64,000 bases of DNA, from positions 68,743-132,742 of the forward strand of contig DIIC01000044.1 of assembly GCA_002420425.1 (NCBI GenBank), written 5' to 3'. The notes below the pieces were generated by a model. The model did no database searches. It had not been told where the DNA came from and saw only the letters and a list, made by a program, of their open reading frames with translations. Source of the stretch: Proteobacteria bacterium UBA5680. Lineage in GTDB: Bacteria > Pseudomonadota > Gammaproteobacteria > Arenicellales > UBA5680. Position numbers and translations under genes: made by a program. Below are positions 19,216-21,060 of the stretch, in pieces; the first letter of the stretch is position 1; the number at the start of each line of letters is the position of its first letter.

Positions 19216-21060
19216 ATGGGAAAGAAAGAGACAACCGTCAATAAAGTGATGGAAACAGCTCAGCAGCTGTTTCTTGATGGCAGCTATGCCGACGTCACCA
19301 TGGATCAGATTGCGGCTGGAGCAGATGTAACCAAAGGGGCGCTCTACCACCACTATTCGAGCAAAGAGGATCTCTATCTGGCAATGATGATCTCAGACCT
19401 GAAGGAGAAAAAAGCGCTTTTCAGCACTGCGGTCGGCCTAAAGGGAAGTTGCCAGGAACGCTTGCGCAACCTGACAGAAGCGTTTCTCATGCTGCCCCCA
19501 AAAAAACGTCTGCTCATAAAACTGGTCAGGCGCAATATTAATACCCTCGGGATCCCCACCCGAAATCAACTAATCAATGCCTATCAGGAGGCCCTGCCCA
19601 ATCAGGTCCAATCGATAATTGAAGACGGTATTGCCAGCAAAGAACTTAAACCCGGAGACCCCCGATTGCTTGCCTGGTCATTTGTCGCCCTGGTGGAGAC
19701 CGTCCTGAGCCTCCATGCTGACAGAATACTCAACGGCAAAGAGAGCAAGCTTGAGTTTGTGCTGAACCTCTTCCTCAACGGCGCCTGTGACCAGAAGGCG
19801 ACAGAGGCGGTAACCGACTTGCTGCAAGACCTTGCAACCACACCAACTGAAGATGACATTATCATCCCCTCTGCGGCCCCGACCCGGAGCGTGGACGACC
19901 CCGTATTTCCTGAGTGGCGAGGCAAGGATCTTGATGACATCCTGCTTGAATGCCGGGATTTGGTTGAGGATGACACCTACCCTACTCTCAGCCGCTGGAG
20001 AGAGAGTGGCAGAAAGATACTGGGACACTTTCAGGTCTACTTTCCTGAAGAGATTGCCCATGCTGCCGACATGCTCCCCTTTAAGGTCAGGGGTGGAACC
20101 GTTGAACCCACCCATGCAGACTCTCGCTTTGGTTCCTATCTCTGCTCGATTCTAAAAACCTCCATGGAACTGGTACTGAGTGATCGGGTCAAACTGGACA
20201 TGTTCGTCACTCACCCGATTTGTGACGCGGCTCGCAATCTCGCAGCCGTATGGGGACGCAACTTTGACTACCCCTGCCAGATCCTCTACCTCCCACAAAA
20301 TGCAAACTCCGGATACACCGCAACCTATCTCCAGGGAGAGTATGACCGACTTCAGAGCACCATCGAAGAGATCTCTGGCAACAGCGTCACCCAGGAGGAG
20401 CTCTCTCAATCGATCGCCCTCTTTAATCGTAACCGGGCACTACTGAGAGAACTCTATGAGATCAAGCGTGACACTCCATGGCTGGTCTCAGCAGAAGATG
20501 CCTACTGTCTGGTAGCTATTAGTGGTCTGATCCCCAAGGAGGAGCACAACCTTCTGCTTGAGACTGTCCTCCCCATGATCCGAAGCCGAACCGATGCAAA
20601 AAAAGAGGATCGGATCCGTATTGTCTTTGAAGGGGGCTTCTGTGAGCAGCCGCCACTCGATCTGATTCGAATGGTTGGCCAGACTTGCTATGTGGTGGAT
20701 GATGACCTGCTGATCGGGCTGCGCTGGATTCTGGAAGATATCCCCACCGAAGGTGACCTCCTCCACAATCTTGCTGATGCGTATTTGGAAAAATCCTCCT
20801 ACAGCCCGGTACAACACGACCTTCGCAAACCGAAAGAGAAGATGTTGCAGCAGCGCGTTGAACAGTCCGGTGCTGAAGCCGTCATCCTGACCGCAGCGAA
20901 GATGTGTGAGCCGGGACTCGAAGAGCAGGTAGCCTACACCCACACGCTGGATAAGGACGGCACCGCCTACTTCGTCAGTGAATTTGAAGAGAATATGACC
21001 AGTTTCGACCATTTGGGGCTGCAACTGGAGACATTCATGGAGAACCTGCTCTTTAGCTAA
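19216..21060 (+). CDS. Fusion protein: full TetR-family regulator (aa 1-~190) + BcrC/BzdN/HgdB-type 2-hydroxyacyl-CoA dehydratase/benzoyl-CoA reductase family subunit (aa ~240-614)
   Basis: N-terminal TetR HTH ([32 protein letters not shown]) plus a helical ligand domain, then an acidic/Pro linker. The C-terminal part has HGD-D family features ([46 protein letters not shown]). It is one uninterrupted ORF. Confidence 0.8.
   Translation: [614 protein letters not shown]

Follow-up and report, generated by a model that had tools for sequence, protein, structure and literature searches.

How does a complete TetR-family regulator come to share one polypeptide with a subunit of an iron-sulphur (Fe-S) reductase, and does the join matter to the cell that carries it? 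The question is raised by a single ATG-started open reading frame (ORF), found by ORF calling and translation at positions 19216-21060 (+) of a 64,000-nucleotide stretch, hereafter the window, of contig DIIC01000044.1 from the marine gammaproteobacterium Proteobacteria bacterium UBA5680 (Arenicellales; assembly GCA_002420425.1). The gene comprises 614 codons plus a stop, and Pfam and its relatives identify it as a fusion of a TetR regulator with an MbdN-type gamma subunit of an aryl-coenzyme A (aryl-CoA) reductase. TetR regulators are almost always free-standing, with about 200 residues. Here one is permanently tied to a subunit of a four-subunit, ATP-driven Fe-S reductase, in uncultured marine Arenicellales and Acidiferrobacteraceae that are present in many ocean metagenome assemblies, including those of Tara and of oxygen-minimum-zone samples. 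Our results indicate that this one protein is probably both the autorepressor of its operon and the gamma subunit of the reductase, with a flexible tether between the two.

Domain architecture of the fusion protein

The regulatory domain occupies residues 1-190 (19216-19785, +) and is supported by Pfam, by an alignment with free-standing relatives (alignment A3), by a structural model and by substitution rates. It opens with a helix-turn-helix (HTH) region at residues 12-57, where TetR_N is matched with E=1.5e-13, scoring 50.8 bits (cut-off 24) over profile positions 2-47 of 47. A helical half for ligand binding and dimerisation follows, in which the TetR_C_24 match at residues 77-162 is weak, with 24.9 bits just below the cut-off of 26.4. 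The enzyme domain, an MbdN/BcrC-type gamma subunit with the HGD-D fold, comprises residues 227-614 (19894-21057, +), as judged from its match to the structure 9g87_B, its relatives and its substitution rates. The HGD-D profile is covered whole (1-342) at residues 273-611, with E=5.6e-56, and homology to free-standing gamma subunits begins at about residues 227-231, at the motif VFPEW. Between the two domains lies a linker of residues 191-226 (19786-19893, +), delimited by model confidence, substitution rates and a comparison of junctions, which contains a remnant GGAG and a remnant gamma start codon, GTG.

An AlphaFold2 model, based on an alignment of fused and free-standing relatives, gave an all-helical TetR half, with helices throughout residues 2-188 and block values of the predicted local distance difference test (pLDDT) of 75-94, and a confident alpha/beta C-terminal domain from about residue 230. 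Residues 191-223, flanked by these confident domains, had a pLDDT below 50. In the model, the linker is disordered and the two folded domains are joined by a flexible tether of about 36 residues.

The initial annotation of this DNA, made from the letters alone, had placed a TetR regulator and an HGD-D domain on one polypeptide, as the Pfam scan now confirms. It had also seen neither a stop codon nor an in-frame ATG between about residues 92 and 290. Translation agrees, the next methionine being M286, and every peptide quoted at the time occurs in the translated ORF. Its bounds needed adjustment: the TetR domain at residues 1-190 stands, the linker, put at about 190-240, is shorter (about 191-226), and the gamma domain starts at about residues 227-231 instead of 240.

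Occurrence of the fusion and selection on its two halves

A search of 5.8 billion proteins recovered fused orthologues of 595-616 residues, 63-66% identical to the protein of the window, and also thousands of free-standing gamma subunits of about 388 residues. The 90%-identity cluster that contains the window's protein has 41 members, all from metagenome-assembled genomes (MAGs) of Arenicellales or Acidiferrobacteraceae, and the full 614-residue form is found in many independent assemblies (NCBI, JGI, ENA, Logan and Tara). Its members are variously labelled 2-hydroxyacyl-CoA dehydratase, benzoyl-CoA reductase subunit C, TetR family regulator or hypothetical protein. Fused orthologues from four separate samples have the reductase cassette and the flanking genes in common, and a further one, at locus L007, stands in a different genomic context. 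Linker length, about 36 residues in the window and about 20 in L007, differs between fused lineages, as does linker sequence, and the reading frame is always kept. Across four fused clusters at 90% identity, with about 160 members in all, no reversion to separate genes was seen, and the gamma domains have diverged to about 74% identity. A search with the TetR half only returned 158 free-standing TetRs and none of the fused proteins P0001-P0005, despite identities of 54-100% over that half, and the fusion counts from this protein search are lower bounds. Representatives at 50% identity are uninformative on further TetR-HGD-D fusions, since fused proteins cluster under an unfused representative.

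The ratio of nonsynonymous to synonymous substitution rates (dN/dS) was estimated from fused orthologues with informative divergence (synonymous divergence, dS, of about 0.6-1.3). It was 0.03-0.11 in the HTH region, 0.10-0.11 in the TetR C-terminal domain and 0.02-0.07 in the MbdN domain; the linker, with 0.57-0.64, never lost its frame. Both halves have been under purifying selection after fusion, and evolution of the linker is nearly neutral. Alignment A3, which holds 45 free-standing relatives, has 24 invariant columns, and the TetR half of the window keeps them all, including the recognition helix TKGALYHH.

Origin of the fusion from split genes

To place the fusion among its relatives, 80 species-representative loci were classed by the position of tetR, with a reach of 1.5 kb upstream on the same strand. 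The two genes are fused in three loci (L012 and L013, Acidiferrobacteraceae; L014, Arenicellales), tetR directly abuts the gamma gene in seven (L015, L016, L029, L038, L044, L078 and L080), and in the remaining 70 no tetR was found within that reach. The fusion is confined to one marine gammaproteobacterial group and one other lineage, that of L007. As to whether orthologues are fused or split, a check proposed in the initial annotation, conserved fusions do exist, but most relatives are split or have no tetR.

Split operons, found in L008 as well as in the seven loci with abutting genes (MAGs of Planctomycetota, Acidobacteriota and others), resemble that of the window in having tetR first, the same gene order and the same candidate operator, described below; their TetR proteins are 48-53% and their gamma subunits 66-72% identical to the corresponding halves of the fusion. 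They differ in that a stop codon separates the two proteins, where the window has a linker of about 36 residues. In L008, a free-standing tetR (8001-8606) and the gamma gene (8603-9769) have 4 nt in common. In two Planctomycetota MAGs, L015 (5586-5600) and L016 (5571-5618), tetR and the gamma gene share a reading frame, interrupted by an in-frame stop codon and a short spacer, an arrangement that appears from the sequences to be an intermediate stage toward the fused state.

The junction itself carries traces of such a past. Unfused gamma genes start exactly four codons ahead of the V/I-F-x-x-W motif, and at this position the window has an in-frame GTG (V226, 19891-19893) with a GGAG (19886-19889) before it. 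A 15-nt string, CCCCGACCCGGAGCG (19877-19891), is common to the window's linker and to the tetR 3' end and gamma Shine-Dalgarno region of L008, and the linker residues APTRS equal the upstream region of L008 read in the gamma frame. In view of the remnant start, the remnant Shine-Dalgarno sequence and the string shared with L008, the linker is best read as a former gene boundary, and the fusion as a lineage-specific join of two translationally coupled genes. The lineages differ in what they retain: L007 keeps an ATG at the ancestral gamma start with GGGGGA 9 nt upstream, and in the clade of L001, L012, L013 and L014 the start codon at that position has been lost. Neighbouring coupled genes commonly become fused in evolution.

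Bootstrapped neighbour-joining trees on Kimura distances were built for both halves. In both, the window groups with the fusions of Acidiferrobacteraceae and Arenicellales, and L007 with split forms. The grouping has 51% support in the TetR tree and 93% when the free-standing TetRs of box operons from the same family are included. Given the position of L007 on both trees, at least two independent fusions are likely. A single origin is less likely for the same reason, a point that the low deep bootstrap values leave unsettled.

The aryl-CoA reductase

The gamma domain (residues 231-613) matches residues 6-387 of 9g87_B, the MbdN or gamma subunit of 3-methylbenzoyl-CoA reductase (MBR), with E=1.7e-152, and it is 70-75% identical to free-standing proteins of about 388 residues. 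The genes that follow, all on the forward strand, encode the expected partners. They are an MbdO/BcrB-type beta subunit (21097-22395), which matches 9g87_A (MbdO) with E=7e-164 and has the cluster cysteines; a BcrA/D-type ATPase (activase) subunit (22413-23222; BcrAD_BadFG, E=5.9e-65; CoA_E_activ, 258.7 bits, above cut-off); and a second subunit of this type (23222-24052; BcrAD_BadFG, E=5.4e-49; CoA_E_activ, 205.8 bits, above cut-off). A 97-residue protein with three invariant cysteines (CGECPSxVC; 24055-24348), conserved after the ATPase genes, closes the cassette.

A Thauera-type BcrC identity is ruled out by the score against the equivalog TIGR02263 (237.5 bits against a cut-off of 421.15), to which the domain is only related, and a Bzd-type BzdN identity by that against TIGR03190 (67.8 against 453.8), with three of the six cluster cysteines kept. 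Since both equivalogs score well under their cut-offs and the best matches are MbdN and MbdO, the sequences assign the enzyme to the MBR-type (MbdONQP) class I ATP-dependent aryl-CoA reductases. Among the window ORFs scanned, no CoA ligase, no dch, had or oah gene and no gene for downstream ring hydrolysis was found.

In the BzdNO structure, the N subunit holds an [8Fe-9S] electron-transfer cluster and the O subunit binds benzoyl-CoA at a [4Fe-4S]-OH2 active site (PMC11971306). The window proteins share the HGD-D fold with BzdNO (8s02, Aromatoleum sp. CIB), at a distant similarity of E about 1e-18 to 1e-22. Gamma residues C310, C336 and C564, invariant in alignment A1, align with the BzdN cluster ligands Cys73, Cys100 and Cys327, and beta residues C92, C125 and C370 with all three active-site cluster ligands of BzdO (Cys95, Cys128 and Cys380). 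The other three of the six BzdN ligands have no counterpart in the window's gamma subunit (Cys36, for example, corresponds to Q273), which may therefore hold a [4Fe-4S] cluster, as HadC-type proteins do. Homology would make the fused subunit the electron-transfer partner and place the substrate and active site in the beta subunit. The initial annotation had assigned the substrate-reducing site to the HGD-D subunit, which is probably wrong, as BzdNO places the substrate on the O, or beta, subunit (PMC11971306).

Some further features of the cassette deserve mention. The proposed acid/base residue His131 of BzdO is replaced by Tyr (Y128) in the window's beta subunit and by Phe in MbdO of T. chlorobenzoica; MBR-type enzymes may use a different proton-relay residue. 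An ORF of 97-102 codons follows the second ATPase gene in all the cassettes examined (24055-24348 in the window; 14834-15127 in L002; 12173-12478 in L005; 6088-6396 in L007). Its products are 35-46% identical among cassettes, share the motifs CGECPSxVC and YTRR and have no match in Pfam or NCBIfam; to judge from the sequence, the protein could be a fifth component of this reductase type, such as a small metal or redox protein. A 348-residue metagenomic fragment, P0329, has a hemerythrin domain N-terminal to an MbdN-type gamma subunit that is 68% identical to that of the window, and in L005 a separate hemerythrin gene (12501-13064) lies directly downstream of the cassette. Further sensor-like domains may thus become joined to the gamma N-terminus as well.

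MBR-like gamma subunits with 67-75% identity occur across Gemmatimonadota, Acidobacteriota, Chloroflexota, Planctomycetota and Gammaproteobacteria (L017-L091), which reflects either unusually strong conservation or frequent transfer. The lineages concerned are usually taken as aerobic, which is notable for an oxygen-sensitive enzyme.

The regulator and its candidate operator

In alignment A3, the TetR half is 48-56% identical to 45 free-standing TetRs of 195-245 residues, and the protein search found many of 195-210 residues with 50-59% identity. It aligns over its full length with solved TetR structures, such as 6azh, DarR and FadR. The acyl-CoA sensors FadR and DarR are among its closest solved relatives across the whole domain; FasR also ranks high, but over the N-terminal 100 residues or so only. 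TetRs of this clade, likewise preceded by the candidate operator box, stand first in box-like and paa-like aryl-CoA operons as well as in bcr/mbd-like ones, and by analogy the ligand of the TetR half is probably an aryl-CoA. In L010 (8001-11831; Acidiferrobacteraceae), a free-standing TetR of this clade heads an operon with a BoxC-like protein (550 residues, ECH) and a BoxB-like protein, and in L009 (98-7491) another heads a paa-like operon (Aldedh, ECH, PaaA/PaaC and PaaD). The tetR start of L010 was probably called about 90 nt too far upstream, as the box falls within the called ORF.

Upstream of the fusion gene, comparison across loci points to a candidate -35 hexamer, TTGACA (19149-19154, +), and, 17 nt after it, a candidate -10 hexamer, TAGTGT (19172-19177, +). 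The candidate TetR operator, CATACTGAAGAGTAGGTATG (19183-19202), has an ATAC-N10-GTAT core at 19184-19201 and abuts the Shine-Dalgarno sequence of the fusion gene (GGAG, 19202-19205, +), which lies 10 nt before the ATG at 19216. L001 and L007, both fused, show the same layout of TTGACA, 17 nt, TAnnnT and box; in most other tetR loci, hexamers of the TTGAC(A) type stand at similar distances. The box lies upstream of tetR or of the fusion gene in 15 of the 16 tetR-bearing loci, with a family consensus that is a perfect palindrome, ATACCGACCGGTCGGTAT. Exact ATAC-N10-GTAT matches number 16 in 913 kb of loci, 14 of them adjoining a tetR start, and the only copy in the 64-kb window is that at the candidate promoter of the fusion gene. 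A second box, with one mismatch (11633-11650), was discarded as within chance, as two or more matches arose in 13 of 100 shuffles. The box is kept upstream of every fused locus and is nearly unchanged in L001 and L012-L014.

This motif has a footprinted precedent. MbdR, a TetR repressor of Azoarcus sp. CIB's mbd cluster, which encodes the MbdONQP reductase, binds an ATAC-N10-GTAT operator and is induced by 3-methylbenzoyl-CoA (PMC4424350). The two systems agree in enzyme type, in regulator family, in the 18-bp ATAC-N10-GTAT palindrome and, as predicted for the window, in autoregulation. They differ in that the Azoarcus regulator is a separate gene with its own promoter, whereas that of the window is covalently joined to the gamma subunit and heads the gene order N-O-ATPase-ATPase. 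In Azoarcus, the operator spans the transcription start (PMC4424350); in the window, it follows the candidate -10 hexamer and precedes the start codon.

A third arrangement was seen in L068 (1-195) and L039 (3871-4445), where tetR is divergent from the gamma gene and an ATAC...GTAT-type box separates the two; at L039, TetR identity is only 26% and three mismatches fall in the box.

Discussion

Taken together, these observations are best accounted for by a protein that is operon autorepressor and reductase gamma subunit in one, and we consider this the probable function. Its N-terminal half would be an MbdR-like TetR repressor that probably senses an aryl-CoA. The dimer of this half would occupy the box at 19184-19201, which lies past a sigma-70-type promoter and before the start codon, and would so repress the five-gene operon to which it belongs. 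The C-terminal half would serve as the gamma (Fe-S, electron-transfer) subunit, with the partner subunits encoded directly downstream. Ancestrally, tetR would have been a separate first gene whose translation was coupled to that of an overlapping or adjoining gamma gene; the tetR stop codon would have been bypassed in marine Arenicellales and Acidiferrobacteraceae, turning the boundary into a linker, and independently in the lineage of L007. We infer from this scheme that the protein binds DNA, that aryl-CoA releases it, that the fused chain is built into the reductase, and that any change in regulation might consist, for example, in a fixed 1:1 ratio of repressor to enzyme or in two reductase complexes being bridged by a TetR dimer. 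One of two functions offered in the initial annotation, that the subunit is its own DNA-binding repressor, is indirectly supported by the purifying selection on the TetR half and by the position of the putative operator between promoter and start.

Several points weigh against this reading. DNA binding, ligand response and enzyme assembly of the fused chain are predictions made from sequence. MbdR itself (4uds_A) aligns with the TetR half only at residues 6-61, with E=2.2e-4 for the single sequence and E=1.1e-10 for the profile, and ranks about 54th among solved structures. Orthology to MbdR is rejected, as the alignment is limited to the HTH, and the ligand is thus deduced from context alone. 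A consensus promoter scan made no call at this site, because the -10 hexamer matches TATAAT at three of six positions, and the promoter assignment rests on the comparison across loci. The window's box is the most degenerate of the set, with 5 of 18 positions mismatched to the consensus and 10 of 18 self-complementary. Deep nodes of the trees are weak (bootstrap 38-52% around the window), which makes the number of fusion events uncertain. A TetR dimer needs two gamma chains, and the heterotetramer described for class I reductases contains one. Finally, translation could conceivably also begin at the internal GTG at 19891 and give a free gamma subunit.

Whether the covalent join itself brings any benefit is a separate matter, and the chance that it adds nothing is only a little short of even. 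The stop bypass would then simply have become fixed between two coupled genes and been tolerated, with regulation as in the split operons. This account overlaps with that of an autorepressor that is also a subunit, and differs only on whether the join is adaptive. In split operons, tetR already comes first and overlaps or abuts the gamma gene, so that stoichiometry and autoregulation would change little on fusion. The same-frame genes of L015 and L016, separated by a stop and a short untranslated spacer, the nearly neutral linker and the rarity of the fused state (3 of 80 species representatives) agree with this, and the hemerythrin-MbdN fragment P0329 suggests that the gamma N-terminus tolerates added domains. 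Nevertheless, the fused form has persisted across lineages as far apart as 74% or so in their gamma domains, with no reversion among the roughly 160 proteins of the four clusters, and it probably arose at least twice. That the join is functional in a specific way, with the TetR dimer bridging two reductase complexes or with gamma assembly withdrawing TetR from DNA, is doubtful. If it were so, transcription of this costly and oxygen-sensitive enzyme would respond both to the aryl-CoA ligand and to the amount of unassembled gamma subunit, and the protein would, as far as our searches show, be without precedent both as a TetR-family trigger enzyme and as a transcription factor built physically into a Birch-type ring reductase.

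It is unlikely that initiation at GTG 19891 supplies the free gamma subunit, the full-length fusion being mainly a regulator. The codon stands exactly at the unfused gamma start with GGAG upstream, and the GGGGGA ahead of the retained ATG makes a plausible ribosome-binding site in L007. In the window, however, the GGAG is 1 nt from the GTG, which is too close, and no other purine-rich tract was found nearby. The clade of L001, L012, L013 and L014 has no start codon there at all, and gamma dN/dS is still 0.02-0.07; with the start codon lost and the gamma subunit conserved, the fused chain must be the gamma subunit in that clade. Internal initiation is thus unlikely in the window and in the L001 clade, and plausible in L007.

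The second function suggested in the initial annotation was a TetR pocket recruited to bind acyl-CoA or substrate; that the TetR half has given up DNA binding and become such a module of the enzyme, or a scaffold in it, is very unlikely. That the closest solved TetRs include acyl-CoA binders and that the window's operator copy is degenerate would fit it. Set against these, constraint within the TetR half is strongest on the HTH (dN/dS 0.03-0.11), none of the 24 invariant columns, recognition helix included, has changed, and the putative substrate site is in the beta subunit by homology (PMC11971306). The operator retained at every fused locus, with little change in L001 and L012-L014, argues that DNA binding continues, and the idea of a recruited substrate pocket finds no support.

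An assembly or sequencing artefact, with a stop or frameshift missed between two genes, as the two-gene or tetR-less state of most relatives might suggest, is rejected as next to impossible, since the identical 614-residue protein occurs in independent assemblies from five sources, orthologues with 63-66% identity occur in other samples and genomic contexts, and their divergent linkers all stay in frame, which also answers, indirectly, an earlier concern about read support at the junction.

The trigger enzymes PutA, BirA and NadR likewise carry, on one polypeptide, a domain that binds the DNA of their own pathway genes and an enzyme domain, and the protein of the window is similar in joining a DNA-binding regulatory domain to an enzyme domain of the same pathway. 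Proteins of the PutA, BirA and NadR type use ribbon-helix-helix or winged-helix/HTH domains, and catalysis or the substrate state switches their DNA binding. The window's protein differs in having a complete TetR with its own ligand domain, placed on the non-substrate-binding subunit of a four-subunit complex.

In the literature that we searched, neither a TetR joined to an HGD-D or benzoyl-CoA reductase subunit nor the presence of this enzyme in Arenicellales was described. The earlier statement that no characterised example of this architecture was known agrees with these searches as to the covalent fusion; the unfused regulator and enzyme pair and its operator are known from MbdR (PMC4424350). 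What is new is that the two are covalently fused, that the fusion has persisted under selection and that it has probably recurred. The split, same-frame-with-stop and fused stages are all found in living lineages and document how a regulator-enzyme fusion can arise from overlapping genes, and the split and fused forms provide a natural experiment on whether regulation is altered when a repressor is tethered to its target enzyme. For annotation, the ATAC-N10-GTAT box together with this TetR clade offers a signature for aryl-CoA regulons (bcr/mbd-, box- and paa-like) in metagenomes.

Neighbouring genes

Directly upstream of the cassette, at 12177-18709 (+), lie the genes of a peptide/opine-type ATP-binding cassette transporter (SBP_bac_5, two permeases and a fused double ATPase) and of an alpha/beta hydrolase. 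A similar transporter is in synteny in L001 and L002, which hints that the reductase substrate may be imported as a conjugate and not as a free aromatic acid. The other neighbours in the window are housekeeping genes. A 91-residue AsnC/Lrp ligand-binding (RAM) domain that stands alone, without an HTH, is encoded at 18733-19008 (-), divergent from the fusion gene across the intergenic region 19009-19215.

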